DNA of 64,000 nt from Sarea resinae (taxonomy: Eukaryota): assembly GCA_026026165.1 (NCBI GenBank), contig JAPEUD010000067.1:62001-126000 (forward strand), read 5' to 3'. How positions within the stretch are numbered: position 1 is the first letter of the stretch; each line of letters begins with the position of its first letter. The notes under the pieces are model-generated. The model was not told the origin of the DNA, searched no databases, and saw only the letters and a program-made list of their open reading frames with translations. Made by a program: the position numbers and the translations under genes. Positions 6,501 through 64,000 of the stretch are shown piece by piece.

Positions 6501-6853
6501 GAAACAGTGTATGTATCAGCGAGCTAATTACGCTCCAGGTTATGAAAAACAGGCACCAGCACCATCCGCGTTTGCCGGTAATCTTGCGAATACCAAAGAG
6601 GGACAACAGCCACTGTCACACCGCTCCCCAAATAAGCCCCATCTTCAGGGTAAGCGCCTGCCGTCATGGCAAGCATAGAAGTAGTTAGGTCCTGATTTGG
6701 CACATAGAGTCGGCTTCCAATGAGCAGCGGCCCATGTTAGCCGCACGCTATCTAGCCAATCTACGGAGCGACCTTCGCAAGGAGAACGTTGTAAGAATTG
6801 AAGACTTCGTCAAGAGAACACAGGCTGCAAGCAGACGGCAGGCTCAACGGTAA
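3567..6853 (+). CDS. Large low-complexity hypothetical protein with RGG tract and repeated SKWA motifs
   Basis: Exons 3567-3632, 3855-4026, 4098-4335, 4415-4654, 4716-6649 and 6708-6853 splice in frame with canonical donors and branch sites. It includes the 649-aa ORF. No family recognised. Confidence 0.7.
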
Positions 6854-8012
6854 ATGTGTGAACGGATGAATGGAAAATGCATGTCTAAATCTGGGATGTG
6901 TCATACCTTCTTTATTCTGAATGCATTCCAGAATTCTAGACTTGCAGCTGTCAGCTTTTGTCTCGTGTCTTTCTTATCCCATCTGTCATGTTATGACTGA
7001 TTCTGTGGATTGAAAAGTCCTGTACTTCTTGTCCTCCCACCCAACCCTCTTCGAAAGCCAAAATAAAAGCCTGATATGATTTCCTTTTGTCTCCTTCCTC
7101 TCTTTCTTGCTTTGTTTCTTTCTTGATTCAACCTGTCTCACCAATACGAGGATCACAGGAAGACAGCACGACAGTGTATCCTCCATTTCTCTTTGTATGC
7201 AGCAAAAACAATGAAAATAATACAATGGAAGCATGTCCTGACATGTTTTCTTCCCCGACTGAACACATGTACTATTACGGCCCTACTCGCGCCCGCCTAG
7301 GAAAGCAAGTGTCCAACCTTACGGCCAGTGCTGGGTTGCCTGTGGGCAAGGCGTTATAGATAGCGATTTGATATAAGCCACTTAACATCCAGTTAGGCTT
7401 CGGTAAAAGTAAATCAGCAATATAGGCATTGCCTCCACTTGAGGGTTGAAGAGATGCCATGGAGAAATCTTCGAAAGTCTTCTGGTTGACGTATCACTAA
7501 TCATAGAATTTGATAACGATGAGTGAAAAGGGAGTGAGGTATCACCGTAAAGAAGAGGACGCTTAGGCGAATGGGAAAGAATACTACAGTATCCAGTAAA
7601 ACATTCTATTTCATCAAAAGATGAATCTCAGACATTTTCTTAGGCAAACAGCTCAAGCATCTCGCTCTGTATGCAAGCTACTTTAGTTACGGCTATCATG
7701 TAACAAGACTTCCTTCCAAGGAATTGATATCAACCTGAAACAGAACAGAAACGACAAGAATGATATGTTCCAACACCTCAAAGTGTGAGAAAAGAAAAGG
7801 GCCAGAGCACGAAGTTTCTGACGGATGTCGCTGCTCGACCTGAAAAACGCCTTGATCTGAGACCCACAGCAAATTCACGCCATGCGACAAAACAATTTCT
7901 GCTACTCCTTGCTTAATTAAGTCAATGTTCAAGCTCTCTTGCTTCACAAAAGGCCATTCCCTATCATCGTTGGGTTCTATTCCGAATTGGAAGAGCTGTT
8001 GCGTAATACGTC

Positions 8013-10107: not shown

Positions 10108-10731
10108 GGTCGAATCACTTCCTGAGCAATGATTTTAAGAATGCACCATGCACGAGCAACGTTGAGTCGCGAAGGTACTCTGCTCTAGAAGTAGGCGTCA
10201 TTTGTCTAACAGGGACTGTTCCCTCATAGGTGACGCGCCGCTCGCGCCAGGTAAGCCCGCCTCCAGCATGTCAGACACGTCCAGGAGATGCGCATTCACG
10301 TGACAGATACCTCGTACAAAGTACTTTACATCCTTCGTACTAAAAGGCATTGGATGGGACCTCGAGTCATCAAATACCCGCGCATGAAGCAAACTACTGA
10401 CTACCTTAGGTTCCATAAGGCAGGTAGTACTACATGGATAGTAATTCATCACGATAATAAAGGAACCATACTTCAGCGAGGTTTGGGAAGCTTCACGATT
10501 GATTTCGTACTGGACATGATATATCATTTGAACGCAGTCCACTGGGGCCACTTCAGAGATTTCTCATGGGTTCAGAGATGAACACATCTTCTCCGCTGTA
10601 CAGACGGTAAAAAGGGACGTTAGCCATTGATCATGGATATCTGTATTTAGGCTTCCTTATGGATCTCGTTAGTTCGTCCCTAGTCATTGATAGCCAACTG
10701 ATAAATAATCCTCAGGCGACCTGGAAGCACA

Positions 10732-39989: not shown

Positions 39990-40770
39990 TCGGGTCTAGG
40001 ATCTTAAGACTTAAGCTCTTCTTCACTGGAGTCCTAGCCGTTTGCTTTGCTGCTATAAGGTTTACTACTGTGTAATGTAATCACCCTTAGAGCTAAATCT
40101 ATACTGTCTATATAATATTTAAATTGATTATAGAGTTATAAGATTTCGTGTAGCTACACTAGTGCGTGTCTTTATACTTGATTACCTTAGTATCTTTACC
40201 TTTTAACATTTAATAGTAAAGAAGTAAAAGCAATTAGTGAGAGATACTAAGAGCAATTAATACTAGTATATATAGAGAACTAGTAGAGAGGTAGTAAATC
40301 CCTCTAGGTAGCACTAGTAGCAGATAGAATTAGAGCTCTAAGTAAAAGTTGCTTGTTTAATTCTATTTACTTACCTAAAGTAGATAGTAAGGTTAGTACT
40401 CTACCTTACCTTAAGGTGTATAAGCTGTACTACTACTAGCTTAGGAGATATCTAGAGCTCTAGCTGTAATAGTTAGAGTATATACTCTAGTGACTAGCTT
40501 GTCTTAGTAGTATAAATTATATAGACACACTATAAATTATACTAACTTTTATACTACCTAAGGTACCTACCTAGGTACCTTAGTATATATTTATAAGGCA
40601 AGCTTAAGACAAATAAGCTGTTAAAGGCATTATATATATCTTAGAATTTAATTAGAAATTTCTACTAGGTAACTTCTTTCTAAGCTTTATTATTACTGTG
40701 TTACTTATCTCTCTTCTCTTTCCTCTTAGATTACGCTCTTAATTCACTCTTAGTAGCCTTTAGGCTAACA
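39990..40770. repeat. Short AT-rich RIP-mutated relic of unknown origin
   Basis: Abrupt drop in GC, TpA excess and CpA/TpG depletion, starting right after the UPF0662 stop. Confidence 0.7.
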
Positions 40771-40941: not shown

Positions 40942-42334
40942 ATGGCCAGAGATGTGCCGCGATTTTCAACTTGCTCGGTCGCGAATTGCAAACGGCCTGG
41001 CGTCCGAGGTTCGAGCTGTGGCATCTGCAAGCGACATCTTTGCAAAAAGCATCTGGCACCTTCATTTCATACTTGCAACTTAGATGTATGTCACACCTAA
41101 CATATGTGACAGGACGAAATTGACGGTTGCTATAAAGATATCTGATGCAGCCTGGAAGAAGCAAATTGAAGACGAAGTCGAAGATCTTCTCGCTCAGATT
41201 AATATTCACGAATTGGTCAGTAGAGCTTCGACTCTAAGGGACAACATAGGTTGCAAATTCCAGCCCGGAAAATATATTGGCAATGGAGCCATTATGGGAT
41301 GTGCAAACTACCATGCATGGCTTCATTTTGAGGACGGCGAAAAGTGGCTCGTCAGAATCCCAAGGAAAGGGCTAGGTGACGTTCCAGATGACCTGATTGA
41401 ATATTTCGTTACCAGCGAGTATTCAACTCTCAAATATCTTGGATCCACTCAAGTGCCCGCCCCCAAGGTGTTCGGCTATGGCCTGACTTCCGATCCGTCT
41501 AACCGCGTGGGCGTAAGCTATCTGCTCATGCAAGCTCTACCCGGAAATCCATTTGACCCATATGATGCGACGGCCGAGCAGAAGGACACTGTTTTTAAAC
41601 AGCTAGCCGAGATATTGATTGAGATTCACAAACATCCGGTTCGGAGAGCTGGCTCTCTAGTCTATCGTAATGGACGTTTCGAAGTCATGGCTGCTGCAAG
41701 CAATCGTTTCGTCGCACTAGGCCAGTATGGTCCTTTCGATAATGCGGTTGACTATCTCGTTGGCATCACCGAGAATTATCTGGATCTGATTGCGGATGGC
41801 CAGCTGTACCATGAGTATCCGGAAGATGCTTTTCTCTTCTATGTGACTCTCCGTGACAATGCCTACAAGCTTGTTGGGGACGAGACTCCCGCCAAGTTCT
41901 TCCTGAAACACGTCGATGATAAGGGCGACCATCTCCTCGTGGACGAGAAAGGCAATATAACAGGAATCATCGATTGGCAATTTGCACGATGCGTTCCGGC
42001 GTGCGAAGCTTTTGGCCCTTCATACTTCACTGCCGACTTGAATTGTCTCTACTCGGGCAAGCCTGGAATTACAGGCGATGATAGGCGGCTCGCTCGGGAG
42101 TTGAGGTTGCGAGGCGCAGACCAGCTGGCTGAACATATGGAACGAAACGAGCTTGCTAGGAGGTTTCATCACGGTTTGGCAAGTGGCTTGGCTAAGGATG
42201 AGGCATGCGAGTTGATAAAGGGTGCCTTAGTGGCATTCGGAAGAAACGACACCGTGGACTTGGACATTTGGCGGGAGCAAACACGGAAAAGGTGCGAAAA
42301 CGATCCGCGATGGCAAAGAATCAAGACCCTCTAG
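40942..42334 (+). CDS. AN1-type zinc finger + APH/choline-kinase-like phosphotransferase (copy 1)
   Basis: Exon 40942-41085 encodes C-x4-C-x9-C-x2-C-x4-C-x2-H-x5-H-x-C, followed by intron 41086-41137. Kinase motifs MGCANYH, WLVRIP, FFLKHVDDKGDH and GIIDW. Confidence 0.88.
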
Positions 42335-44046: not shown

Positions 44047-45511
44047 ATGTTTGACAGCACTTCAGTTTTTCGTTTCTGGACGTGTAGTATCAAAGATTGC
44101 TCTCGAGCCAGTGCGATAGACGTTGGCCATTGTGAGCACTGCCTTAAACACTACTGCGCCATTCACTGGCGCTCTCCATCCCACACCTGTGAGGTAATAG
44201 GCTGTTTACTATATAGCAGCTCGACCACTAATGCCTTTGCAGAGACAACCTTTGGATGATGACACCTGGACAGAGAACCGAAACAAGGAGCTACATGCTC
44301 TCAGAAACAGTATCAACGACGAAGCTCTCCTCCTTCGCGCCTCCAAACTCAACCATGGCATTGAGTGTCGACTCGACGAAAGAAGTCCAATTGAGCACCG
44401 CATGGTTGGTGGGATGCACATGCATCTCCGAATCCAGTTTGCCAATAGCTCTCATACTTGGCTCGCGCGAATTTTGCGTGTGAACTCGACGTCGTTCTCG
44501 GATGAATTCACCAATTACATCCTACTTAGCGAATGCGCGACCATGCAGTGGTTACAGGCCCTGGCTCCAAAGGTGCCCAGTCCTAGGCTTTATGGCTTTG
44601 GTCTACGCAATGATCCCTCTAACCATGTAGGCGTGGCTTATATGCTTGTGGACGAGCTCCCTGGCACGCCTTTGAGCTCGATGAACCTCTCAGCCGATGG
44701 GACACGAAAGGTATACCAGGATTTAGCCGACAGCTTGTTTGCTCTATGGGCTCATCCATTTGATCGAATTGGATCTCTATTTCTTGGAGTCAATGGCAAA
44801 GTTTGTATTAGCGCGACAGCAGGAGACCGGACAGGTACTCTTCCTAGGCTTGGGCCATTCAAAGACGCCAAGGAATACTACGTAGCCTGGTGCGAGGCTT
44901 ACCTGGACCTGATTGCTTCGCAGCAATTGTTTGTTCGATTTCCAGTAAACGCCTATTTGATCTTCCATTTCCTCCGCGAGCAAGCCAGACAAGGAAAATG
45001 GAGCGACTTCGAAGAGAACATCGACAGAGGGCCCTTCTATTTGAAGCACATGGACGACAAGGGCGACCATATCCTCGTAGATGAGGACACGCTCCGGATT
45101 ACCGGCATCATTGACTGGACCTTTGCACGTATTGTGCCTGCGTATGAAGCATTCGGTCCCTCGCTTGTCACGGCGGACATGACCGATATGTACTCTGCAG
45201 TCGTGAAACGGACAGTGCAGGACGAGATACTCGCTGCTGCACTTAGAGAAAAGAACGAAACTTTGGCACAATATGCTGGAGCCTCTGACAAAATCCGCCG
45301 CTTCACCTTCGCGCTCAGTATGGGCGTCGACATCTCATGGGACGAGGCACTAAAGCTATTCGAAGGCCTCATTGTGACTGCTAGCGGCCTCCAATGCGCT
45401 GAGACCTTCGATTGGAACCAGTGGCGCGCTGAGTATTTGGCTAGATTAGGCGACAGCGACGAGAGGCTGATAGCGCTTATGAATGTTCTAGATAGTGATC
45501 TTTTAGATTAG
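44047..45511 (+). CDS. AN1-type zinc finger + APH/choline-kinase-like phosphotransferase (copy 2)
   Basis: Exon 44047-44193 encodes C-x4-C-x10-C-x2-C-x4-C-x2-H-x5-H-x-C, followed by intron 44194-44242. Kinase motifs GGMHMH, WLARI, FYLKHMDDKGDH and GIIDW. Confidence 0.88.
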
Positions 45512-45689
45512 CAGCGAAGATTACAATGACTTCACTTTAGAGAGTATATATTTTTTTTATCAAAGCTACTATATATAAAGATTATACGCTTTATTTATAG
45601 GCACTCTACTACTATTTAACAATGCTTGCAATAGGATTATAGTGTTTAAATCTATTTTTTACTTTTAAGACTGTTATTATAGTCTTAAT

Positions 45690-47319
45690 ACCTTCTATAG
45701 GTGTTATAAATGTTCTATAAGATTCTACAGGGTTCTACTACTTTCTATAGGGTTCTACCACATTCTATCAGCTTCTATAGGTGTGTAGGAGCTTCTAGAT
45801 GTATCTATACTGTCTTGTAACAGTCTGTAACAGTCTAGGTACTTAAGAGTGACTAGAATTAAGGTTATAATTCTAACACACCCCCTTAAGCTTAATTCTA
45901 TAGGATAGGTATGCAATTTAGAACACCTATAGAACTTGGCTTTTTGTAACAGTTGCTATAGGTACGCAGTTTTATGCACCTATAGAACTTGCACCTATAG
46001 AACTTGTTTGTTCTTTAGGTGTAGGCTGTATCTGAATAGCCTTTAGGACTTCTAGCCACCTTTGAGTGCTAAGTGCATCAGCAAAAAGGGAGGTGTGCTA
46101 CAGGTGACTACAGGTGCGCTGTGTAACCCACGTTACCTATGTTACAAACAGTCAACGCTGTAGCGCTACATGTACAGTAGTTTAGGTAGCAGCTACTGTA
46201 GTACTACATAGAATACACTGACTTTGTATATCTTCTACACAATATATTAGTGTCAACTACATGACTATTCTTTTACCTACTAGTAGACTACAGTAGATTC
46301 TAGTAGTTATACTTACTAATCTCTAGAGATTAGATAAAATACATGTAGACACCTACTGTATTACTAATGAATATAGAATACACATGTATTTTAGTAGCTA
46401 CTATATAGCACAGATAACTTATTATATAGAGTCTATACAGTGCGAAAAATAGTGTTAATTATACAGTGAATCTACTAACTAGGAGAATAGGTTAGTTAGT
46501 TAATAATAATGTAAACTATTAATATACTACCTAGTATCTGCTCTAGCTAATTAGGTTTGTAATTTAACTTGTTCTTTAGGTAATAGGCTTAGATCCTCTA
46601 GATCCTCTTCTCTATTATTATAGAACCCTTCTATTAGAACATAGACTTTTCTAGGAGTTAAAGTATTGCTATTAGGGTAGCTGCTCTAACTAGATTTGTT
46701 AATCTAATAGTTCTGCAGATAAGGCTTACAGACTAGATAAGGCTAGTCTAGTAACCTATTAACTAATAGTGTGTTAGTAGAACAATAGTCAACCTAACCT
46801 GTTAGAAGGTAGCACAAAGATATAAGTAGAGGAAGGTGCTAAAGAAGTATAGTATAGAATGATTGTGTATTTTAAACTTAGAGATTCTAGCTATAGAGGT
46901 GTAAGGCAGTTAATATATAGACTTAACTGACTTACTAGAAACTTCTAGTGATAACTAATTACATAAGTGATTTGTAAGCAATAGGCTGACAATGACATAG
47001 GCTTTGTAAGAAAGTTAGGAGATAGTTGTGTAACCCTTATATTATAGAGTTCTATAGATATCTAAGAAATTCTATAGACTTCTAGATAGTTCTAGAACAT
47101 TCTAAGAGGTTCTAGAAGGTTCTAGATGCTTAGTCAGCATGTAGTGATGCTTAGTCAGCATAGCTATAGAATCTTCTAGAATGTTCTATAAGGTTCTATA
47201 GAGTTCTATTAGCTTCTATAGGTTTGTAGAAGCTTCTAGATGTATCTATACTATTATATAACATTTTATAACAGTCTAGATACTTAAGAGTGACTAGAAT
47301 TAAGGTTATAATTCTAACA
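45690..47319 (-). mobile_element. Internally deleted copia-like LTR retroelement (RIP-mutated)
   Basis: LTR 46800-47319 is bounded by TGTTAGAA..TTCTAACA and followed on the minus strand by GGTTA. A second, partial LTR copy ends at 45878 and is preceded on the minus strand by a polypurine tract AAGGGGGTG. Only ~0.9 kb lies between them. Confidence 0.65.
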
Positions 47320-47899
47320 TAACCTAAGTAATCTATTATAATCTAACACATAACTAGAGGTCTATAGATACTAATTAAATAATACATAGTTATAGCACCT
47401 TAGGTAATAATAAAAGGTAATAATAAAAGTACAAGCAATATAAGAAAATAGAAGCAATAGTAATAACGTTACTTTTCTACTATATAGTAGATAGTGCATT
47501 CTAATAGAATTATAGATACAATCTTAATAGTAGCTAGATCTAAATTATATAAGAGGCCTACTTAACTAGAATAAGTGTCTTATCTACTTATATCTAGTGT
47601 AGTCTTCTAACTACTTAAGAACCTAATTTATCCTCTAATAAGCTTAGGTTATATAAGGAGTTATAAGTCCTAGAGATAGAAGCACTATATTAGATATAAT
47701 GTAGCGTTCCTTGCCTTAATGTTTTTTAAGTAGGCTTAGGCTGCCCTTACCTACTACTATCTTTCTCTTTACTAATATAGCAACTCTTAGCAACTTTACT
47801 ATTATAATTTTTACTATTAAAGGTATTCCTTATCTTATTAGCACTTGTATCCTTAGTTAGACTCTGTTATAAGAAGATATAGCGTTTATAGTAGCGAAT

Positions 47900-50400
47900 T
47901 ATTATTAGGCTCTAAATTGTATTAGGGTTTAGGTTGCTTTAGTAATAGTAAACAATATTGCATGCAATATTAAAGCATTGCTTAACTCTAACTGTTAAGA
48001 CTAGGGCTGCTAGAATGTCTCTTACTACTTGCTTAATTGTTAGGAGTTTAACTATAGAGTGTTGCTAGGACTAATTATAAGTTAGTAAGTTTAAAGCGTT
48101 ACAATATTTTGTTACTTACTTTAAGTAGTGTTTAATAAGTAGTAGAGGAGATAGGTATAGAAAGGTATCTTATAGCCTTAATAAGTCTTCTATTCTACAA
48201 TATAGACTTCTGCTAATTTGTAAAAGCAAGTGAATTAAGGGTTAGATAAAGAGGTGTTAGTGTTAGAGTAATATATAGAGTGCTACTCTTAAATTTCTAG
48301 TAGTTAGCTTTATAATACTATAGAAACTGTTGCTAATACTTCTTTATATAAGTTGCGCCTTAGTCTAGACTCTAGAAGAGTAGAAGAGAGAAGTTAGTAA
48401 TATCTCTATAAGCGTTATAAGATAGCGTTACCTTATATGTATTAAGTTTTTACTTTAGGTCTAGAATGCAAGTAAGACTATATAGCTCCTTACTACTATC
48501 TGCTGTTGCACTATAGTATTTGCTTAGGTAAGATAGTAAAGCCTTAATTGCTTTACTAAGGCCTTATTTCTATAGAATATCCTTCTCTAGAAGCTAAGCC
48601 TTTTAGGACTTAAGGTAATTAAAGAGTTTTCTATATGCAAACTAGGTGAGATAAATTGTAACCCTACTAGTTGTAGAAAGGGCTTTAGTCTACACCTTAA
48701 ATAGTTGTAGAATAGCAATTAGATACTCTACTTACTTCTACTTAGTGTTATTTAATTAAAGCTTTTTAGTGATCTAAGATAATTCTTCGCTTTAAACTAG
48801 CTTATTAATTGCATATTGTAGTACTAAGGCATAGGCAAGCATATTAAATGTTAAGTTCTATTAGGTGCAAACATCTTAAATAGGATGTAAGGCTTTGCTA
48901 CCTTAGATATTAAGAAACCTTTTAAGGCGCTAAGGTAATACCTAGATAGCAACAGTGATTTAGCAGACCTAAGGATATATATAAGCAAGAGCATTACTAT
49001 CTGCAGTTACTATAGAGGTACCTTCTAGAGTGTATTGCTAAATATAATAACACTATTAGTTATATCCTTAAGCTCTATTTCTTTCTACATTGTTACAGCT
49101 GTATTGTTTGTTGCAATCGCTAAGAGTGACTTAAGAAGTGCAGTTATAACAAGTTAAATAACATGTGCTATATATAGAACAGCAGAGATAGCTAGGTTCT
49201 AGTTAAAATCCTCTCTTTTAAAGAGGATATTATAAAAGGCTGTTTTTAATGTGCTATTATTTGCAGTATTATCTGTAGTAAGGCTAAGCAAACGCCTTTA
49301 AGATAATATAAGCACTGTTCTTTAATAGGGCACTAGAACTTACCTAAAGTTTATATCGCTATAGAACACTATAGACTGTCTCTATAAGGCGTTGCCCTAT
49401 ATACTACCTAGTTATATACTTAAAGCTAAGTAGCACTTTATAGTAGGACTAGTTAGAAGAGATATAGTATCCTATTATTACTATAAACAAAAGATTATTT
49501 AGTGATGTCTAGCAATCTAAAGCAATAGAAACCTTTGTTATTAGACTAAGGTCTTTTAGAAGAGCTGCCTTAATATTGCAAACATAATTAGAGATATGTG
49601 CTTAAATTATAGACTGCCTTTAGATGTAGAGAGTAGGACAAAGCATGTGTAATGTTCTTTAGAACTAAGCATTCTCTACAGTATAGAACAGTAGATTTAG
49701 ATTAATAACTATATTTAGAAGTTGTTTCTCCTATCGCTCTTAAGTGAATATAGGAAGATTATCCTAAGTAGAAGTCTTTTACTGTTTCTAGAAAAAGCGC
49801 GTTACTATTTGTCGTTATAATATTAGAGACAATACATACCTAGAGACTTGTCTTAAGCGTTATCTATACACTTAACTGCTTTTTCTTAATGTATTGCTAT
49901 GTTATTAGGTAGTTCTTTAGTACTAATGTTCTAGTGTTCTTTATTAATAGATGCTTTAGGATAAAGCTATATAGTCTGCAGCAGACAGCTAGTTATCTAT
50001 TGTTGCTTTTTATATATTAGTCGAAATATTCCTAGTATTTACTATATCTTTGTATTAAATCCTATAGTAGATTCCTAAATTGTGTAAAATTAGCACTATA
50101 TTTTGTATTAGTCTACTAGGTAAGAAACATAGCTGACTTGTTGCTATTAAAGATAATATAGCGATAATAAGAAGTGTAACTAAGTGTAATAGAGGCCTTA
50201 ACTCTCTTAGAGAGTAGAGACTCTAATTCGCGTTACTAATTGTTGTTACTTAAATAGGATTAGGAGTATATACCTAATTGTAGGTCTAACTCCTAGCTAA
50301 TTGTATAAGAGGTAGAGGAAGCTAAGCTCTCCTAGCTTAAAGTTGTAGTTGCTATTGTATAACCTAGGTGTAGAGGCTAGTATAACAATATATAGACACT
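47900..50400 (-). pseudogene. hAT-family transposase, RIP-inactivated
   Basis: VSIALDC*TS (~49503-49532), SLTTDN (~49270), PI*DVCT**N (= PIQDVCTRWN, ~48856-48884), KYY..CILD (~48460-48522) and a dimerisation-domain pattern RDILAA..TV.V..CFNIA (~47905-48045). The 5' end is approximate. Confidence 0.85.
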
Positions 50401-50599
50401 ATAGTAAAGAGACTGCATTATAAGTATATATAGAGGAGTAAAAACACAAACATAACACGTTAAAACTGTGTAGCTAGCTGTAATTAGCTCTATAACAACG
50501 TGTAAAAAGAAGGCTAGTATAGGAGTTAAGTAAAGTAATAATAATTAGTAACAGCAAATATAAAGCATAAGTAGCACAATACTAATATTAGGCTATTAG

Positions 50600-52057
50600 A
50601 ACAGACCTACTAGCTAAGAAAAAGACTAAACTACAGATAGTGCTAGTTGTAACAAGGGATATATTATTAGTGTTTTACTACTTCTACCTAGTGCTTATTT
50701 TAGTATAGTAAAAAGTCACTAAAGAAAGTAAGGCGACTTAGTATGCACACACTGCTTAGGATTAGAGAGGTATATTAACAATAAGAGTTTATAATCTATT
50801 CTCTAAATATGTAGTAAAGAAGCTACAAAATCTACTAATGTTTGTCTTAGACTAGTAATGCATTTTAGTAACTCCTAAGCCCTTATTACTAATAAAAGCT
50901 ACTACTAATTATCTAAGAAAGGTAACGCAATTTAGTAACTCTCTAATTATCTATAGCTATATTAGATAAGCTACTAGCTAGTCTCTCTTTATCTCCTTTA
51001 TTAATATTGTCTAGTTTGTTATTATCCTCTATATCTAACTTATTAATAAACTTGTTATTACTTTCTTCTCTAAGAGTAACCTTATTATTGCTAATCACTA
51101 CCTTAATATTATCGCTGCTAACTAATAAGGCCTTACTCTTAGAATCTATTATGTCTCTAGGGTTTAGAAGAGCCTTAGGATATTCGCAATTAGCTAGAAA
51201 GCGCTAAAGCTCTATTCCTATATCTTTAGAGCTAGCTATTAAGATTCTAGTCTAGAAGGTAGTGTAGATCTCTTGCTCTTATCTGCAGATAAAAGAGGCT
51301 ATACACTTATATAAAGCATCTGCTATTCCTCCTTTGTTATTAGTCTTTAGAGAGAGTGTCTGTAATTTTATTAGCGTTATGTAATTAAAAAAGCGTTACT
51401 AAAATCAGTTACCTTTTAGCTTAGCTCTAAGACTTTGTCAGCTAGCCTAGCCTTAGCTATTTCGTTAAATTTCTCTTTAGCTTTCTACTTCTCTTTGTTT
51501 AATCTAGCTATAATCTTAGACTTAATCTACGCTAAAGATCTCTTCTCTTTCTATCTCTTCTCTTCTAACAGCTTAAAGCGCTTAACTAGTATCTAAGCCT
51601 TCTTATCTTTACTAGCCTCTTAATAGGCAGCTGTTTTAAGTAGAGCAACCTTAGCATTGTGTTTAGCTTTTTAGTCTGCCGCTCTAGCCCTTATTAGTGT
51701 TAGCTTATCTAGAGTTATCTAAGACTTTGTATTCTAAGTATAAGAAGTAAAGGCCTTAGTAGAGTACTAGCTGTAGTCTTTTTACACCTTAATTTTATCT
51801 TCACTACTCTTCTTATATAGCCTATGTTGTTTCTAAGACAGGTTAGTTATATAGTTAAAAGCGTTATTAAAGACTGTTACCTTTTGCATAGAGAACCTAG
51901 CATTATATTCAGCTAATGCTGTAGCAGTCTCCTTATCTATTTTAGTGTCTATAATTATATCTATTATATTGTTATCCTATTAGAGTTAGTAAGTGCTCTA
52001 TATAAAGATATTACTAATAAGCGTTACCTTTTCTATCTTAATCTTCTTCCTAGACAT
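50600..52057 (-). pseudogene. RIP-mutated spliced gene with charged coiled-coil character
   Basis: ATG at 52057 (MSRKKIKIEK), intron GTAACG..CTAAC..TAG, then a K/E/A-rich helical reading. The 3' end is approximate. Confidence 0.45.
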
Positions 52058-53139
52058 CTTAAGTCTTATTAGATTAAGACTATTAGATTAGATTAAGATT
52101 ATTAGATTAGATTAAGATTATTAAATCAGATTAATATTATTAAATCAGATTAATAACCTTTGTTAGATTAGGAATCTATATCTGAATTTCTTTTAACTTA
52201 AGTGTTAGTTACTATCTGTAGTTACTATTATATAATATAATAGTAGAACTTACTAAGGTGATAAAAGTATGCTCTTCTAAGAAGTTTTAGTAGAGAAATT
52301 AGGTATCCTTTTTCTAAATTTAGATTTTCAGCTAATATAGTATAGACTTTTGTTCTTAGTTACTATATACTGTTACTATTATATAGTGCAATGTCTAGAG
52401 AGAATAGAAATTAAGTTTGTAGACAATTAGTGAAAAAATTAATAGTAGAGGAGATAGAAGAAGTTGTAAGTAGTGAGTAATTAGTTAAGGAAAGAAGTAA
52501 GAAGAGTTAAGGAAGAAAAAGGTTAAAAGCTGCAAGTATTATGCTTTAAAAGTCATATAACTCTATAGTATATGCTGCATTCACTGTTTTTTGCATTCAC
52601 TATATTTAAGATGTTTAATGATTTTTGTGCTAAAACTTAATCCTTATATAGAGTTATACTACTAGCACACGCGGCATACTATACTGCTACACTTCTACTT
52701 ACCTATATATCTAAGTGCTAAATCTTCCTCTTACTACCTACACACCTCTACCTTACTACCTCTCTTCTCTAGCTATTATACCTCTATAGATTTCCTTTAG
52801 ATTATTATACTTCTTTAATATCCTAGCTAGTAACTTAGAAAGGTAACTAGCATATGTATGCCTGCTTAATTAGAGCTATTAATTCTACTTTACCTTACTA
52901 TTCTCTAAAGTTAGGTGAGTTATAATCTAAGATTATAAGGTAACAGCATCTAGTAACGCTAATCTGTTTTATAGATCTTACACTATTATTAAGTCTTATT
53001 ATTATTATTATTAAGTCTTATTATTATCCTTAAGTCTTATTATTATCACTAAATCTTATTATTATTATTAAGTCTACTCTATATAAGTCTTTTTAATAGT
53101 AACAGAATATAGTAACTAACTCTTACTTAAACAGCAATT

Positions 53140-53760
53140 ATAGGGCGCACTAAGCAACATGCAAAGTGCTTTGACTTTAACTATCCTACTCTCTCTAAGG
53201 TTATAAAGTCATATTAGAGTAGATAAGACAAATACTATAAGAGCTTTAATAAGCGCTATAAGAAATAGGATAAGCAGCGTTGCAATGCCTTAGCTAGGAA
53301 TAAAGCTTTTACTATAGCTAAGCTAGTAATAAATAATGTCTATAGGAAGACTAAACTAGGCAGTAAGTTCTTTATCTACTGTTCTATAGTAACGCATATT
53401 AGTAACGCAATGTCTTCTAGCAAGCGCGCTTTGTCAGATAAAATACTATTAAAAAGGTAGCTAACTCTTATTGCTAAAGACAGCATTCTACTGCTTAGTC
53501 TAAGAAGTAGTAACTAATCTGCATCTATCTAAGTCCTTTTATTTCTAAGGCTCTGCTATTAATACTATTTAGGAAGCGATAGAACTTTATATATCTAGCT
53601 TCTTTAATAGTAAGTCAAGCTTAATGTTCTAAAGTAACAGCATATAGTAACGCTCTTTTCAGACTCTAACAACATAGCTATCTATGCTAATAGGGTTACA
53701 ATCTAGCAGAAAGACATGCAATTAGTAAAGAAGACAATAGAGAATTTAGCAGTCTACTCT
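53140..53760 (+). pseudogene. RIP-mutated small spliced gene with H3-tail-like N-terminus
   Basis: ATA(ATG) GGG CGC ACT AAG CAA CAT GCA AAG TGC reads (M)GRTKQHAK(C/R). Basic exon to ~53362, then GTAAGT intron to ~53420. The 3' end is approximate. Confidence 0.45.
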
Positions 53761-56700
53761 AAATAGTTATATAGTGTTTACTAGGTAGTTATAGCGCTTA
53801 ATAAGCATATTTTTCTCAGGGGTTTAGGGGTAAAAGAGGTATAAAGGCAATAGGTTTACAGATCTTTTCTTTACAATAAGTGTTACTATTAGTTGTTACC
53901 TTTAACAATAAATTAATAGAGGTAAACCCTAGTAAATCATTTTAATTATAATCTAAGGAACATTGTGACATGTAAATTCTATAACACTAACTTATATATA
54001 TTTCTATTAACTGTAAGCTATTTTAAGATTATATGTAGTAGTGCTAAGGAAAAACTAACCTGATTTACTACTAGATTAGATTTTATATCTATAATCTGTT
54101 CACTCTAGAAACCTATATAGGGTTAGTAAATACAGCCTTTAATCTGTTTAACCTAACCTATATGCTAGCCTAATTGCTATTATTAATAGCTTTCTTTATT
54201 AGTAGAAGGATAGCCTTTTACTACTAACTGCTTAGAAAATTCTATGTAGCTACCTAGCGCTAGTAGACCTCTAGGTGTTTATTAGCTATTATATTATCTA
54301 TTAGCTGTTATATCTAGCTAGTTACTTACTACTTACACTATCTCTAGTAAAATCTTAAGAAGTAAAGCTCTTTTCTTTCTATTTAGAGAGAGTGTAATAG
54401 AGTGTAGTAGACACAATATATATTAGCTAATAGGTGATTTGTTTAAAAGCATCTAATGTATAACTAATATTTGCTAGTTTCTAGACTCTGTTAAAGAACT
54501 CTTTAAGTATAACACATATAATTGCTAGGTAGAATAATCTCTTTTTCTTTCTCTAAAAACTATTAGATAACTAAAATAAGTAGAGAGATTTATATATAGA
54601 CAGATATATCTTAATAGTTAAAACTATCTTAATCTAGTAGTTAACTTACTTTCCTCTTAAGTTGTTCTAGTTTAGTAAGAGGCAGATTATATAGGTCTAC
54701 TACTAGTTAATAACACTATAATATAATATATCCTTATTACTAGCTTATTCTAATTAATAGCTAATAAGATTTAATTATTTAGAGTTAGTAAGTAGATAGT
54801 AGAAATATTACTTAATAGTCTTACTTACTATAGGTTTAATATATATAGGTAGCTCTATTTTATATTATCTAGAGTCTTTAATAAGATAAGGAAATTAATG
54901 CTCTATCTTAATTGCCTTTGCCTTTATATAAGCCTAGTTCTATATATTAGCACAGATAGTAGCTATACTATTGCTTTTTAAGAAAGAGTTCTAAGTAATA
55001 ACATATATTTTTATTATTACCTTAGCTATTAGATAAATATCCTAATACCTATAGTGTAGATAGCACTCTTTTAAATGCATTTAAACCTTTATATATACTC
55101 TTATATCTAGTGTAGGAAGCTGACTTAAACCTGCACTCTAATTATTTATAAATATCTATAGAGTGCTAGATAATTAGTGTAGTGTTCTTAGTGTATCTAT
55201 CTTATTAAAAACATATATAGAGGTAGAGTCTAAGTTAATACTAACTGCTCTAGAATAGAGACTAGAGAATAAGAGTCCTTTATTATTGCTTAGAACCTAT
55301 TATCTATAAGTAAAATTAAAAACAAGTACTCTAAGAGTAAGACTTACTAATAAGAGTAGAGGTAGTATTAACAATTTATTCTAGAAGGTGTTTATTAACA
55401 GATCTTATATATAAAGCTCTCTTAGTAGTTGTCTGTTAAAAAGGTTAGGCTTCTAAAGAATATCTCTTTAGTTAGTTTATTTTACTGCCTTCTAACTAGT
55501 AGTAGACCTATATATAGAATGTCTATCTATTAGAAGATCTTAGAATCTTATAGGTAATTCTCTTACAGTTTAATTTGCCTTACTACTTATTTATTGCTGT
55601 TCTACTAAGTATAAAGTAGCCTAAGTGTTATTAGATATATATTATCTGCTTATTAGTATACTCTCTTTACAATTAACTAAGTTCACTTTAATATGATTTA
55701 GCCTAAGGCTTATTATTTATCTTCTTATTATATAAAGACACTCTTATTTATTTAGATTCTTTCTAGACAGACAATTGCACTTAGATACTTCTTTATCTAT
55801 TAGTGTACTTATCTAGCTATTAAGAGTTGCTAGTATAAGTTGACTTTCTAGACCCTTAGTGCTATCTAACTAATATCTCTTTCTCTAAGTAGGTGTATTC
55901 TATATTATTAGATTAAGTGAATTATTACTATCTTCTATGTTTTTAGCAGCAGATATAGCGCTAACATTAGATAACTAACTAAGTAGGCTTTGTATTAGAG
56001 ATATTATAGCTTGCTTATAATTCTCTTTATTACTATCTAATAACATTAGCTATAGTTGCTTTTAGACTAGAGAAGTAGTAGTAGTAATCACTAGATCTAA
56101 ACTATATTTAGTCCTTTAGTAGTAGTCTTTTATTAAGTGTAAGTATTATAGAAGGCAACTACTTTGTTTAGTATAGATTAGATAAGTAGAGATAGAAACA
56201 AGTGTTATTATTAGTAAAGTAGTTAAGTTTTTATTCCTTAGTAGACTAAATATCTTGCTAAGAATAAGTCTAGAGTTATTTAAGAGGTATTGTAAAAGTT
56301 ACTAGCTTCTCTATATAGAGCAGATTTAGATAGCTAGGAGTTTAGTGTGTAGAAGACATTAGTATTAAATAGGAATTTAAAGAGAGAGAGAATTATTAGT
56401 CTAAGTAGAGATAAGTATTATCACTTAAATTATATCTTTACAAATTAACAGATAATTATATCGCTATTAGAATAACTTATATAATTAATTTAGATTTATA
56501 TATACTTAGACTAATTAAAATAACACTAAACAAAATAAAAGAGACTAACTTAAAGTAGATTAGCAGATATTAGCTTCTATACCTTATTAAAGTTATCTAA
56601 AAGACACTTATAGTTTAGAACTAACTATTGCTACAATCTCTACTAGGCTGCTAGAATAGAGTATAGTAGAAGAGTAGGTAATAACAGTCTTAAGAGTAGT

Positions 56701-56818
56701 AGATATATATATCTACTGCTCTTAGTATTATAAAGTCGCCTATAATTAAATAAAAACTTATATTAGCTGTGTTTATTACATGTCCTATTTGTCTTTATCT
56801 CTTTTATATATTGTAGAG

Positions 56819-59800
56819 TTAATAATAGAGGTTGTTATCTTTAGTATCTATATTATCTTTACTGCTAATCTTAACTTTAACTTGTAGCAGAACTAGCAGA
56901 TTGTTCTTCTTTAAGGCTGTGTTATTTAGGATACCTCTTAACCTCTAGGTAGCTATAAGTGTATTCTTAATTATAGACTTAGTGTTAATAAATTAATATA
57001 AAGTCACCTTATTATACTAGCTAATACAGTAAACTCTATTAAGTGCTTATTACTTAGAGGTGTCTATATAATTAGGTTTAAAGACAACTACTAGATTCGC
57101 GCGAATTAAGGTTAAGCCTAGTAATATTATACCTATTGTCTTAACTAAGTAAAAAGGTTCTAAGCTAGAGAACATATCTATAATGCCTTAGAATTATTCT
57201 ACTAACCTTAAGCGCTTTGCTATAGAGATTCTGCTATAGAATAGAGCAACTAGCTTATATCTAATATATTTTATCTACTATATATCTGCTATTAGCCTAA
57301 GTATATTATCTAGTAGATAAATACTACTTACTATTACAATAATAAAGGCTATAATTAGGAATACAGTAAAGATAACTATCTTTTCACTCTCTATCCTTAA
57401 ATTCACTCCTATATTATTAATAAGATTATCTAGTGCTTTTAATTTAGAGAATAACTAGCTAAGTATTTCTAGATTGTTATACAACAGATATAATTCCTAA
57501 TCCTTAGTAGCTATAGACCTAACGCTTAATAAGCTCTAGTCTAACCTAGCTAGATTAGAGTAGGTAAGGCCTAGGAATAAAGAGATAATTTGTAGTCGCT
57601 ATATATATTAGAAATATATTATTAAAGTAATACATTATCCTTTATTTAACTCTAGAATTTAGTTTGTTCTTACTACTATAACAGCTTGCTATTGTTTATA
57701 TACTGTCTTCTAGTAGTTATTGCTAAACTAGACTAATAATTTATATCTGCAGAACAGTAAGAGGTTAATTAGTAGGTAGCTGTCTAAGTCGACTGCATTT
57801 TTATCCTATTAGATTATTAGCACGCTAAGGAAGCTAATAAAATTCTAGGCATATTAATTAAAGTCTTTATTAGTAGAAGGTAGTTGCAGTCTGTTAGGTT
57901 TTGCTATGCAATTAAATAGATTTTTATACTAACTTTTAATAAAGTCTAACTTTTTAGGCAAGCATTTTTATCTAATGCAAGAGAGATTAGTTGTCTATTA
58001 GGTATATATAAGAATGTTTACCTTCTCTCTTAAGTCTCTAGGTATAATAAATAGAGTGCTAGAGAGGAACTATATTATAAGCTAGTGTTCCTTATAGCTT
58101 TATCTTAAGGTAGTTAGGTCTTAAATTAGGTTAGTGTTCTTTAATTTAATAATGTGCGCCTTATCTACTACTATCTACTAAAATTAAGTTTCTGCCTACA
58201 AATTGCAGCAAAGTTGCAAACACTTAAACAATGTTACTAGGATAACATTTAATCTTATATGTTTGCTACTAGAGTCTGTTTCTATTAAGTCTGCAAACTT
58301 ATATTCCTATTAACTATACTTAAGAACTATTAGGTTCTTAGTAATCTATTATACAATAAACGACTTTTAGTATTCTATTACCTATATATAGGTAAGATAT
58401 GCTAGGTATATAACTATATTTGCTTCTTTATCTACAGTGATTTAAGAGGTTATAGATCCTAGTTAATATAGGCATTATATCTTATAGAGGTTATTACTAG
58501 GACACTTAACGCTATATTTAGTATTGTTATCTATATTGTCTAATAAATATAAGTGTAAGTAAAATGTTATATAATATTTAAAGTCTTATACAGATAATAC
58601 CTACTACTAGCCCTTAGATATCTTCTGTTATAGATTTGCTAACTCTTTATTATATCTAAGTGATTATAGTATAAGGTCTATAAAGTAGTAATAAGAGCTA
58701 ATGTTATTAGTATCTGCTAGTAGATTAAGCGTTAGCTATTAATTTAAGTACATATTAAAGAGACACTATAGTAGACACACACCTTTCTAAACCCTATCCT
58801 ATCTGCTAAAAACCCCTCTCTAATTCTGTTGCTTTTATTGCGTAATATAAATATAATAGCTATAGCTTAATATAGTAGTAGTTAAATAGGTGCTTAAAGA
58901 AACAGTAGCTTTATAGGTATTTAGGTTATTAATGCAGTGTGTTTAGGAATAAAGAATATAGCTACTATATCCTTCTATATTTAGAGTGTGTCGTGTTAAA
59001 TTACTAGACTATTTTAAATAACTGTTTAGCGTTTTACTATCACTAGGTTTATTCTCTTAATTAGGTTATCTACTCTCTCTAATTTGTTATACTATTTGCT
59101 AGCAAAAGCACTAAGGTCTTAGAGGCCTATAAAGTAAGGATAAAAGTTAGTAGAGGTTGTTACTTATAATCCTAGTACTTACTAAGCAGATAATGTTCTG
59201 TGCTATATAGATAATTATTAGGTAGCAGATTATTATATAGAGTATTATTAGGTGGCAGATTATTATATAGAGTATTATTAGGTAGTAGATTGTTATTTAG
59301 AGGATTATTAGGTAGTAGATTGTTATTTAAAGGATTATTAGGTGGCGGATTATTATTTAGAGGATTATTAGGTAGTAGATTGTTATTTAAAGGATTATTA
59401 GGTGGCGGATTATTATTTAGAGGATTATTAGGTAGCAGATCATTGTTTTTAACAAGTAGATAATCCTTATTATTAATGTTATCTTTGTTGCTATTATTAT
59501 TATTAATGTTATCTTTGTTGTTATCTTTATCCTTAACATTCTCTTTATTAGTATCCTTGCTATTAATGTCTTCTTTATTAGCCTTATCTCTTATTAGGTT
59601 ATATATAAGCTTATTAGAAATATTATCTTTAATTTGCAGTGATAGGTCTATAAAGAGTTAGCTTTATAGTAATAAGGAATAGTACTGCGTTTAAGTCTAG
59701 CAGCTTACACTTAACGTTATAGCAACCTAGCTTAGGAACTAGTAATAGACATTGTGTTTCCTTTAGCTAATATAGTAATAACTTAGGTGTGCTACTAGAC

Positions 59801-60000
59801 TAACTAACGCTTGTTGCAAGGCCTAGCAACTAACTCTTTAGTAGGTGTTAGCTAGTCTTAGTAGTAGAGAGTAAGGTAGTATTTAGTGTTATTACATTTA
59901 GGTTTGTATAATATGTCTCTAGTTAGATAATTAAACAGTCTGTTGCACTAGACAGTTAACAACTATATTAAGACTAGATATAATACCTTATAGCAGACAG
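56819..60000 (-). pseudogene. SNF2-family ATPase/helicase gene, RIP-inactivated
   Basis: Motif I GFLADRIGFRK (= GFLADGMGFGK, ~58784-58820, followed by an intron), motif II IVVDKAH (= DEAH, ~58150-58175), motif III *FLSSTLF (= WFLSGTPF, ~58050-58075), motifs V-VI GLTLIRANLVVVFKP..**ALNRVYCIS* (= EP..QALDRVHRIGQ, ~57015-57125). The 5' end is approximate. Confidence 0.82.
59213..59440. repeat. 30-bp tandem repeat (7-8 copies) in the N-terminal part of the SNF2 relic
   Basis: Units GGTRGYRGATTRTTATWTARAGKATTATTA. The de-RIP minus-strand reading is approximately SATQQSSKQQ. Confidence 0.85.
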
Positions 60001-62068
60001 TGTATATACCTAGTCTAGGTCTTATCTATATAGAAACTAAGTTGTCACTAGCTTGCTTAAGGTTTCTGCGTTTTACATCCTATATAAGGTTAACAACTAG
60101 AAATCAATGTACTCCTATAAAGAGACACTTATAATATAGAATACAATTAGTTATAGGCCTAACTTAAGTACTAGTACAACCTCTTTATTATGTTCTAATC
60201 TAATTCTCTCTCTCTCTATATCTGTCTTAATCTTATTAATAATTGCTGCTTATAGGATAAACCTAGCAATAATATTACAAATACTATCTATAGTTAGAGA
60301 TAATAGTAGGAAAAGTTAAGTGCTTATCTTATTATCTATTGTTATATACTATTTAGCTAGTTAGTTGTCTATTAACTATTAGTAAATGTTAGTTAATAGA
60401 TAAATATATATACCTCTTACTTATTAGTAGTCTTATAAGAGAAGGTGCTATGTAGATAGTTAGTAGATAAGAAGGTATTAGTGTATAAAGAGTAGTAAGG
60501 CTACTAGGTAGAAGGGTATTAGAGTTAGATTAATTGTTTATTAGCTATTAGCAAGTGCTATTTAATTAATATAATTAGATGTCTTCTACTTATAGATGTC
60601 TTTATAAGCTGCTAAACAGTCTAGTTAGTAGCTTTATACTAAGAAGAAGCTAGTGTATAGATAGTAACTACTAGAGAACTACTAAGTAGAAAGGTATTAG
60701 AGTTATATTAAATGTCTATTAGTTGTTAGCAAGTGCTATTTAATTGATATAATTATATATCTCTTACTTATAGATATCTCTATAAGCTACTACAATGTTT
60801 GTTTAGTAGCTTTCTACTAAAAGAGAGCTAGCTAGCAAGGGGTAGCTAAAGTACTAAAGGTATTAGATAAGAGCAACAGCAAGGTTCTACTTTTAGATTG
60901 TAGTTCTTTCTTTATATTGTCTTATAGCTTCTTACAGATATCTTATACAATAATAAATAGGTGTTTCTAATTGTAGCTCTATCTAGCAGCTTATCTTCTA
61001 ATTTAGTCTGCAAATAGTATTAGAAAGTTAGCAGACTATATTATATCCTCTATTATAGTGTTAACTGTATAATTTCCTGCTGCTTAAAGGTTAGTGCAGC
61101 TGTAGTCAGATAATACTTACTAGATAGCCCCTTATAATCTAGTCTTAGCTTTATTTAATGTGACACTTAGATTTAAGTACACTTCTAATAGCCTCTTTTT
61201 TATAAGTTCTTATACTTAAGAATTAGGTCTTATAACTGTCTCTTATTCTAGTTGACAAACTATATCCTATTATATCTCTTATTAGTTATATCTATTGTAT
61301 AATAAGAGAGTAGCTTACTTAGCTAGATTGTTATAATATATTAAGAGGTAGAGAGATAACTAGTAAAGAGAATAAGTAGAAAGTAATTAAGGCTAAGAGT
61401 ATAGCACTAAACTTAAGTTTAGTATAATAAGAATAATTAGGCTGCTAGGCTAAGAGAGATATAACAAGCTAAAAGATAAAACATAAGAGAATATAAGTAG
61501 AGAGCTAATAAGGCTAGAGATAAAGTTAATATCTTAATAGAACAATTATCTAAATTAGTAACAAAGTAAGGTTATATCTAGTAGGAATTCTTAATTAGGC
61601 TAGACTAGGTAGTAAGGGTTTTATAGCTTTAATATTAGATAAATAATGTGTTAGCGCAGTGTAAGGTGAATAAGAGTAGTAGCAGCAAACAAGAGTAGTA
61701 GAAGTAAATAGAGATATAAGGTAAATAGAGATCTAACTAAATAAAACAAAGAATAATAACATTATAACATGTAAGAAAGAAGATAAAGAAATGTTGCTAT
61801 TATTAACTGTTTCTAGCTATTAGCACTTAATACTATTAGTATATCTAGTGTGTAATATTGCACCTCTAACTAATATTATATCTAATATGCAATATATTAT
61901 ATAGATAATAGTTTGCTTGTGTTTTAGACAGCTATTAGTGTAGGAGTAAGGTTAAAGCAATATAAATAGCAGCACTACTTATATAGTGTCTACTTAGTGA
62001 TAAAAGTCTAATAGTTAGTCTACTACTTAAGTGAACTATCTGCTAATATAATGTTAAGATAGAGTCTT

Positions 62069-64000
62069 TGTTATCGGCACTGGTGCATCCATGGTGGTAC
62101 CAGGCCCCTGTAGCTTAGCGAGCCAGCATATTAGCGCTTGCAGGCTCTTAGCAGTTTAGAAACTAATCCACTTATCATCATCATACGGACCGTCCATGGT
62201 CAGCCCGTGCCAAATGGTATCGACGGCGCGTTCTTTGCTTTTGCTTTGAAATTGTCTTCTCGAGATCCATTATATCTCACGGAGACCCCAGGTTGTCATC
62301 AAACAACCTACACGTTAGAAACGGTCTCACACCTAGAGCCAGCCGTTTGTTTACTACGGACTTTCCATAGTCCCTCCCACGATGCGATAGCCCTATGGCT
62401 CGAGACTCAGCTTTGCAGCCTGACCAAGTTCTCCAACTCGCTGATCAGCTCCTCGCATTACAGAGGCATCATCCAGATCTCCTACCACCGGAGACATCAA
62501 TATTACTTGACCAGCTAAGCACGCACCGCCGACCGAACACACGCCCAACGTCACGACCCCCCTCAAGTGGGAACTCAAACGGAGAATCCGACGGATTTCC
62601 TGGCATTTGGACCACTGATTCAGCCCGCCGAAACACCGCTATTGCCAATTTCGAGAACGGTGCCTTTCAACTTCAACAGTCACGACGCACCGGTGGATTA
62701 CGTCATTCGCTAGTCCCACCTTCAGTTGGCAGCATCGCTGGACCTAGCATTGGTCATTCTACAACTTCACCCGACGAGCCTTCCAACTCAGAAGACATCC
62801 CAACAGACACGGGGTCATCGTCACCCGAACAATCAGCAGCAGCATCGGGAGTTACCGAAGACGTCATCGATCCGGCAAGAATCACACCAGCCCGACCGAA
62901 CGACAACGCCCACACACGTTTGGAACCACCACGACGTGACCGTGCCCAATCAAACGAGCCCATCATGTCTCAATTATCCCCCCAAGCCCTTGAACAAATT
63001 CAAGCCATGATTACTGCTGCAGTACGAGCAGGCGGAAATCACAACGGTCCCCCCGGTCCCCCTGGCCCTCCTGGCCCACCAGGAGAACCCGGAGAACCCG
63101 GAGAACCCGGCGAGAACCGCTATACCGGACAATGGAAAGCCGCCGAGATCGGCCTCTTCTACCCCAACCTCCCCGGAGGAGACACCGACGCTCATACCGA
63201 CGTCGTCGACAAAGATAATAAAACTTTCTATCGCGATGTGTACGCTTTCACCAATCGAGTCCGAGTCGCTGCCCTAACGCGGGATCCCACAAAAATACGC
63301 CAGAATCTGGACTCTTGCCTGCGAGGAGAAGCCGAGCAGTGGTGGAATACCGAATTGTCTGAGGTCACTAGACTAGGCCTTGTCGCCCACCCGAACGGAG
63401 TCGAAGAATGGTGCAAAGCTTTAGAGAAAAGATTCAAGCCTACCCCAAGTGCTTCCTGGAATAAATACCAGAACACCCGATACACTGTGGAGGATGCGAG
63501 GAGTCACCGCAGCCTCGGAGAATATGTGAGCACCTTGGTAGCAGCGGCAAAGGGTTGTGGACAAGGTGACTCCGAATTCGGTCTTGTTACCCAAGCCTGG
63601 ATGCATTTGGCCCAGCCGTTACGCAAGTACATTGACGAACCTACCGAAGACACAACGCTAGAGGGTTTTGCAGAGATACTCCGAAGGAAGCAGACAAACT
63701 GGTTCGACGAGTTTAGACGTCAACCTGCACAACCTACAGGCCGACAAGGTAATAATAATCGCAGTCAACAGCAGCAATCCAACCTACAATCACAGTCCAA
63801 TGCTCAGTTCAACCCGCCTCAGTACAATAACGCTTACAATTTCCGAAATCAGGGCTACCAACCGAACTGGCAACAGTCATATCGTTCCCCGTGGCAACAA
63901 ACTCCGTGGCAAAACCGGCCTTCTTGGCGTCCAGGGTCGGCACGAGGAAGAGGACAGCTGCCTTTCCGTCCTCAACCACGCCAAATAACGTCGGGCGGAG
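62069..64000 (+). mobile_element. Intact (non-RIP) LTR retrotransposon 5' end, probably Ty3/gypsy; continues beyond window
   Basis: Abrupt switch to balanced base composition at TGTTAT (62069). Tentative short LTR to ..GTGCCA 62212, followed by AA-TGGTATCGACGG (PBS-like), then a long gag-like ORF. Confidence 0.75.
62395..64000 (+). CDS. Gag-like protein, open at the window end (missing from the ORF track)
   Basis: Uninterrupted frame from ATG 62395 (alternative ATG 62965). Capsid-like segments include EIGLFYP, YRDVYAFTNRV, CLRGEAEQWWNTELS and WCKALEKRFK. Confidence 0.8.
   Translation, partial: MARDSALQPDQVLQLADQLLALQRHHPDLLPPETSILLDQLSTHRRPNTRPTSRPPSSGNSNGESDGFPGIWTTDSARRNTAIANFENGAFQLQQSRRTGGLRHSLVPPSVGSIAGPSIGHSTTSPDEPSNSEDIPTDTGSSSPEQSAAASGVTEDVIDPARITPARPNDNAHTRLEPPRRDRAQSNEPIMSQLSPQALEQIQAMITAAVRAGGNHNGPPGPPGPPGPPGEPGEPGEPGENRYTGQWKAAEIGLFYPNLPGGDTDAHTDVVDKDNKTFYRDVYAFTNRVRVAALTRDPTKIRQNLDSCLRGEAEQWWNTELSEVTRLGLVAHPNGVEEWCKALEKRFKPTPSASWNKYQNTRYTVEDARSHRSLGEYVSTLVAAAKGCGQGDSEFGLVTQAWMHLAQPLRKYIDEPTEDTTLEGFAEILRRKQTNWFDEFRRQPAQPTGRQGNNNRSQQQQSNLQSQSNAQFNPPQYNNAYNFRNQGYQPNWQQSYRSPWQQTPWQNRPSWRPGSARGRGQLPFRPQPRQITSGG

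Follow-up and report, generated by a model that had tools for sequence, protein, structure and literature searches.

Known systems and the locus

PlavakaB transposons, as described in the parts of Kojima 2025 drawn on here (PMC12730594; the other papers cited are likewise represented by passages), have the termini CATCA..TGATG and target duplications of 2-3 bp, and their consensus entries are about 6-22 kb long. The subject of the present analysis is a unit in a window of 64,000 nucleotides, the whole stretch of Sarea resinae DNA that was analysed, to which all positions below refer. This unit, in which other elements are nested and which is called the outer unit below, is probably a dead cut-and-paste DNA transposon of the PlavakaB type (CACTA/EnSpm-related), at least 8.5 kb long, with SNF2 and DUF6532-like accessory genes. 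It begins with CATCAGCAAAA, the terminus of several PlavakaB families, one of them from Tuber, an ascomycete, and its size is compatible with that of the PlavakaB entries. The described cargo of PlavakaB, however, is TET/JBP, whereas the outer unit combines SNF2 with a DUF6532-like gene in a filamentous ascomycete with active repeat-induced point mutation (RIP).

Several chromatin-related accessory genes and internal tandem arrays, as in the outer unit, are also described for the giant Plavakas (17-19 kb) of the red alga Bostrychia (bioRxiv 10.1101/2025.02.11.637652). The accessory genes of the algal elements are different ones, namely those for an adenine methylase/SET protein, a 2-oxoglutarate-oxygenase protein and one unknown protein, and 'snf2' occurs once in the text of that report. 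X3X3R8 of Parastagonospora nodorum (Hane and Oliver 2010, PMC3017866) is likewise a multicopy, RIP-affected repeat with SNF2-like helicase genes. It is described as an endogenous Rad5/Rad6-like cluster without termini, whereas the outer unit has one SNF2 gene, a transposon-type end and no detected ubiquitin-conjugating gene. Inton and Enton, which belong to other element lineages and are likened here by description only, provide a precedent for an SNF2 helicase in a DNA transposon (PMC3627910).

Plavaka, giant Plavakas with cargo, SNF2 genes in DNA transposons and RIP-hit SNF2 repeats are thus already known separately. The pairing of Plavaka with SNF2 was not found among the matches listed in the literature searched, a scope outside which Repbase reports and most subscription papers lie, and it is absent from the passages used of PMC5751038, PMC12581995 and PMC10799480. 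The main text of the PlavakaB paper has 0 occurrences of 'SNF2'; the consensus sequences in its supplement may still encode SNF2.

The SNF2 relic and the unit that probably carried it

The host part of the window (1-45.5 kb) contains ordinary filamentous-ascomycete genes. From about 45.52 to 62.07 kb the GC content falls to 0.26-0.33, compared with 0.43-0.54 in the host DNA except for one patch at 40-41 kb, and every kilobase of 46-62 kb has a TpA/ApT ratio of 1.6-2.0 and a composite RIP index above 0.9. At 54.1-62.1 kb TpA is 4.5-fold higher than the host level and CpA/TpG stands at 0.38 of it. This shift in dinucleotides and GC content is the signature of RIP, as had been recognised in an earlier interpretation of the same DNA made from its letters alone (the sequence-only reading). 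Any duplicated sequence is a target of RIP. Between 54100 and 62060, CpG and CpC are reduced to 0.06 and 0.25 of the host level, both below the value for CpA/TpG, so that the mutation there is not confined to CpA.

A divergent SNF2-family ATPase pseudogene with an uncertain start codon occupies 56822-59752 on the minus strand. Its motifs were scored by motif class, only C>T/G>A changes being allowed, so that the matches are RIP-compatible and not literal; motifs were tested against 60 shuffles, and coding-frame scores against 300. In 16.5 kb there is a single match to each of motifs I (at 58818), II (58174) and VI (57049), and a motif III-like sequence at 58066 together with motif V at 57118 completes the minus-strand order I-II-III-V-VI. 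Neither motif I nor the pair V+VI at SNF2 spacing was matched in any of the 60 shuffles, while a match to motif III carries no information by itself, 24 being expected in each shuffle. Four canonical introns preserve the frame (59182-59127, 58782-58717, 58604-58531 and 57331-57278), and a candidate further one lies at 59708-59648. After splicing, the relic forms a single frame of 858 codons that joins an N-terminal repeat tract to all the motifs and contains 56 stops (30 TAA and 26 TAG), or 6.5 per 100 codons versus 13.1 and 17.2 for the two alternative frames. The low-complexity N-terminal tract, identified by repeat search and translation, is encoded by 30-bp tandem repeats at 59214-59546 on the minus strand, with 7.8 copies at 59214-59448. 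The motif order, the introns and the repeat are all as the sequence-only reading had them. The acidic tracts that it also described are today rich in N and K (67 N+K and 12 D+E among 145 residues) and are acidic only on the assumption of RIP.

Homologue searches used stop-read-through translations. The Pfam scan gave no SNF2-rel_dom or Helicase_C match and likewise missed the relic of the hAT transposase described below. Of the 24 weak matches in a PDB search, 15 were to SNF2 proteins, the best being Rad54 (E 0.026). The SNF2 relic, with its ordered motifs and frame-preserving introns in RIP-wrecked DNA, is real. Because its catalytic motifs are all RIP-compatible, the ancestral protein was probably an active DNA translocase.

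The evidence on copies comes from the contigs of a single sequencing run (X1, perhaps the window's own source), in which 57% of the sampled words are present and the unique flank is matched with 0 differences. Two other runs, X2 and X3, gave short matches only (6 and 20 records). In X1 the summed contig depth is 339 on unique DNA, 480-504 on a young long terminal repeat (LTR) element at the right edge of the window, and 5,264-10,496 across 54.3-61.7 kb. Transitions account for 1,023 of the 1,117 variant places, and each of the variant sites listed for 54.3-61.7 kb is covered by 3-8 contigs. This DNA is therefore multicopy; summed contig depth is not a count of copies, but it can be read as pointing to roughly 10-20 of them, and at least several.

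The left end of the unit is defined by contigs. Behind 46075, two contigs carry on with a sequence whose translation, in the flank's own frame, is QLADGFTK, presumably the end of a Copia RNase H. The reading frame of the flank is intact across the empty site at 46075/46076, and the left flank has lost no target bases. As these contigs continue the Copia frame, the outer unit begins at 46076, by a clean insertion. The SNF2 block at 54-62 kb, for which the sequence-only reading gave its coordinates, probably belongs to it; the unit is wider, with its start at 46076. The terminus CATCAGCAAAAAGGG and the subterminal region extend on the plus strand over 46076-46672, which also holds, on the minus strand, the 3' tail of gene A (see below). 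The 11-mer CATCAGCAAAA at 46076 occurs once in the window, where 0.04 occurrences are expected, and the CATCA 5' terminus of PlavakaB is present exactly at the junction. Among the PlavakaB heads in the part of the supplement drawn on (PMC12730594), 27 of 28 begin with CATCA and 7 of 28 with the whole 11-mer, one of the latter from Tuber. Since the junction was fixed independently of the motif, the 11-letter match counts for PlavakaB. Inverted GTAG..CTAC motifs are also enriched in 46076-46672 (6 versus 0.6 expected; 0 of 100 shuffles). The enrichment is confined to this region, and no palindrome marking the whole unit was found.

Gene A, a RIP-dead gene split by the hAT element, lies at 54181-56100 on the minus strand, in the same orientation as SNF2 and 700 bp from it. 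The coding-frame score of 54.4-56.1 kb is reached in 0 of 300 shuffles; one frame continues across the hAT site, the tail alone being not significant (182 of 300 shuffles). In a blind scan the best Pfam family is PF20149 (DUF6532; E 0.0099). The isolated exon matches this profile over positions 119-182 of 194 with E 0.00067 and 20 bits, the gathering cut-off being 24 and the DNA RIP-damaged, and the weak DUF6532-like stretch lies at about 54525-54328. No homologue of gene A was found with the stop-read-through translation, and a single-sequence structure model has a mean predicted local distance difference test score (pLDDT) of 37.4. DUF6532, Plavaka and KDZ are domains that co-occur in some Ganoderma genomes (PMC8955403).

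The sequence-only reading had placed degenerate gene-like regions on both sides of SNF2. The one at 54.4-56.1 kb stands as gene A, while the other, at 60.2-61.3 kb, is unconfirmed, its frame score being reached in 93 and 233 of 300 shuffles. It consists in part of a 178-bp tandem repeat found by repeat search at 60361-60831 (1.9 copies at 60501-60831 and a partial third), which is probably non-coding: the length of the unit is not a multiple of three, and the units differ by 18 transitions and 8 transversions over 153 nt. The stretch after this repeat, 60832-62068, is more repetitive sequence belonging to the outer unit, of high depth, with frame tests that are not significant and no credible Pfam match.

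Nested insertions and surrounding DNA

A hAT element of 7.5 kb (46673-54172, minus strand) lies inside the outer unit. It has the termini TAGGGTAGC and TAGGCTAGC, and 8 bp of its target, ATTGCTAT, are perfectly duplicated on its two sides (46665-46672 and 54173-54180); the empty site is seen in three contigs, which jump from 46674 to window letters at about 54182. Its transposase relic (about 48.1-49.7 kb) carries hAT motifs in the right order, at 49526, 49279 and 48866, and a coding frame whose score is reached in 0 of 300 shuffles; it has no Pfam match. The hAT element inserted later into the outer unit, cutting gene A. A second gene relic lies within it at 50900-52060 on the minus strand, with a frame score reached in 0 of 300 shuffles for 51400-52060 and no Pfam match, and one 5.5-kb contig of single-copy depth aligns to 51280-51759, from which it departs by 84 differences and 13 gaps, perhaps from a more diverged relative. 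A possible third relic occupies 53100-53750 on the plus strand (11 of 300 shuffles). Two 19-bp tandem arrays (52068-52153 and 52984-53075) each lie next to an arm of an inverted repeat of 46 nt (52185-52230 and 53094-53139).

Nested in turn within the hAT element is a solo LTR of 520 bp (46800-47319) with a 5-bp duplication, TAACC, defined by three joints that skip 525 letters. It is identical at 125 of 146 nt to the LTR of the RIP-damaged Copia-type remnant that was the target of the outer unit. This remnant (45520-46075, minus strand), recognised by LTR identity and loose ends, comprises a partial 3' LTR ending at 45878 on the plus strand, a polypurine tract at about 45879-45887 and the RNase H end. 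The summed depth of the LTR family at 45617-46233 and 46851-47467 is 35,000-129,000, so that very many copies exist, and joints place the family beside 46799, 54047 and 58843 in other copies.

At the right, the young LTR retrotransposon (62069-64000, plus strand) is free of RIP, with a GC content of 0.51-0.54, begins with TGTTA and hides the rest of the outer unit. Two contigs run past 62068 with other, AT-rich letters, so that the outer unit continues beyond the young element. The order of insertion is Copia, then the outer unit, then the hAT and young LTR elements, the solo LTR having joined the hAT element before or after the latter's arrival. In the gag-like frame of the young element there is a GPP/GEP repeat resembling collagen, and Pfam shows no gag match. 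The element matches one X1 contig of depth 480 with 0 differences, and the 1,352 letters that precede it in this contig are not on the window.

In the host part, a lone 0.7-kb RIP-like patch at 40050-40750 stands amid host genes and has no blastn match to 45.4-64 kb. Two intact paralogous genes, 41084-42334 and 44201-45511, which are 37.6% identical and presumably phosphotransferase-like, adjoin the repeat block. A tRNA search gave none.

Origin and possible role of the unit

The assignment to PlavakaB is kept at the level of a probable one, and membership is not taken as proven, because the transposase, the right end, other flanks and an intact relative are missing and a single run supplied the copies. 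The following observations weigh against it. The supplement of the PlavakaB paper holds 13 further heads (numbered -101 to -104) that do not begin with CATCA and look incomplete, with which the totals become 27 of 41 and 7 of 41. Neither Pfam nor motif scans detected a Plavaka transposase (PF18759) in the 8.5 kb that can be seen, a result of little weight because the hAT and SNF2 relics escaped Pfam as well. The right end and the target duplication lie outside the window. Among the loose ends listed (18 of 172), none shows the 46076 end of a further copy next to some other flank, and no contig, these being short, was seen to join the terminus and SNF2 of another copy. The evidence on copies, with its summed depth, all comes from the one run. 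An intact relative was not found in protein, metagenome or phage searches. For SNF2, 1.84 billion representatives searched without a filter gave 0 matches; in metagenomes 594 pattern matches yielded 0 confirmed related loci; and the terminus pattern occurs in 0 viral contigs. None of the 35 phage loci (profile E 0.08) and 36 metagenome loci (best tblastn E 0.035) from a degenerate SNF2 motif scan is a family member, and the two viral loci with a Plavaka motif are unrelated.

It is unlikely that two separate repeats are nested here, the CATCA end and gene A belonging to one Plavaka-type element and SNF2 to a different multicopy (X3-like) unit inside or beside it. The block is heavily nested, with four insertions resolved, the joints and loose ends listed are part of all, and there is a precedent for clusters of SNF2 repeats that were hit by RIP and have no known transposase (X3X3R8, PMC3017866). 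However, no boundary between gene A and SNF2 appears among these joints and loose ends, the depth across 55.5-57.3 kb shows no step from one to the other (7,042, 7,527 and 6,917), and the two genes are closely spaced and co-oriented. The chance is small that the unit is a non-autonomous element or a large element of another superfamily, such as a Starship or another tyrosine-recombinase block, with a left end that is Plavaka-like by chance or capture. Neither the mobilising enzyme nor the right arm is in view, but the 11-letter match stands exactly at the junction, and a recombinase motif is below chance in the unit (3 versus 7.5 expected, in a weak test). The hallmark of Starships is a tyrosine-recombinase captain (DUF3435), the first gene at one end; none was detected at the left end of the unit by Pfam or by the motif. 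The Starship considered in the sequence-only reading gains no support, the left end matching PlavakaB termini instead.

That a host SNF2 gene was amplified, segmentally or in a subtelomere, and was later hit by RIP is very improbable. RIP hits any duplication, and Hane and Oliver interpreted X3X3R8 as an endogenous gene cluster (PMC3017866), but here the neighbouring host DNA is at single-copy depth (339), 45-64 kb has no telomere-type repeat, and the host part of the window has no SNF2 paralogue. The relic, which has 0 matches among the 1.84 billion representatives, also scores only 3-12 bits against 12 SNF2 proteins taken as controls from the metagenome motif scan and 12-15 bits against each of the fungal ISWI, Rad26, Fft3 and Chd1 in PDB; instead of high similarity, the housekeeping types (Rad54, Rad26, ISWI, Chd1, Fun30, Rad5/16) give 3-18 bits. 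After simulated RIP to the window's GC content, by contrast, a fungal SNF2 gene still found its 52%-identical orthologue at 298-402 bits, and a gene of the window scored 63-94 bits to its paralogue of 37.6% identity; a simulation need not repeat what really happened, and the SNF2 query carried about 65 out-of-frame residues and one intron. As far as tested, the SNF2 relic appears to be no housekeeping duplicate. The sequence-only reading had named a single-copy locus and a housekeeping SNF2 orthogroup as outcomes that would speak against it; the depth is multicopy, and no housekeeping orthologue was found. Its other suggestion, that SNF2 is cargo of the adjacent hAT element, has adjacency in its favour and is refuted: SNF2 (56822-59752) lies outside the hAT termini, and the hAT element, closed by these termini and its 8-bp duplication and with its empty site in three contigs, sits inside the SNF2 unit. 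The broader claim of a multicopy mobile element with its own remodeller, continuing beyond the LTR insertion, agrees with the depth, the left end and the contigs past 62068, the nucleosome-remodelling activity being a prediction.

For the probable PlavakaB-type transposon, the following course of events can be proposed. A Plavaka DDE transposase and a matching right end (inverted TTTTGCTGATG) would lie beyond the young LTR element, and this transposase would have cut and pasted the whole unit. The unit inserted cleanly into the Copia RNase H gene, and RIP then destroyed all of its genes. Before that, and given this course of events, there is about an even chance that the SNF2 protein drew on ATP to shift nucleosomes or silencing proteins along the DNA of its own element or of the target, to the benefit of expression or transposition. 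In view of the analogous TET/JBP cargo (PMC12730594) and the accessory genes of the red-algal giant Plavakas, its likeliest job would be to keep the chromatin of the element open or to clear the target DNA; alternatively, it may have been a passive passenger.

More tentatively, and with less than even odds, the unit may represent a giant PlavakaB lineage of RIP-active filamentous ascomycetes in which a transposon-specific SNF2 subfamily and DUF6532 form a chromatin module. This module would counter host silencing or open chromatin for transposition, doing here what TET/JBP does in the elements of mushrooms and rusts, and DUF6532 would in that case count among the accessory families of transposons.

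The copy in the window is dead and incomplete, and thus supports the architecture of the unit, not its function. Its left terminus is a simple search key for intact relatives. If the PlavakaB assignment is true, a chromatin motor driven by ATP travels with a lineage of fungal cut-and-paste transposons, and such a cargo is unreported for Plavaka in the literature searched. The 'orphan' multicopy SNF2 repeats of fungal genomes would then be explained as transposon interiors, and DUF6532 would gain a context.

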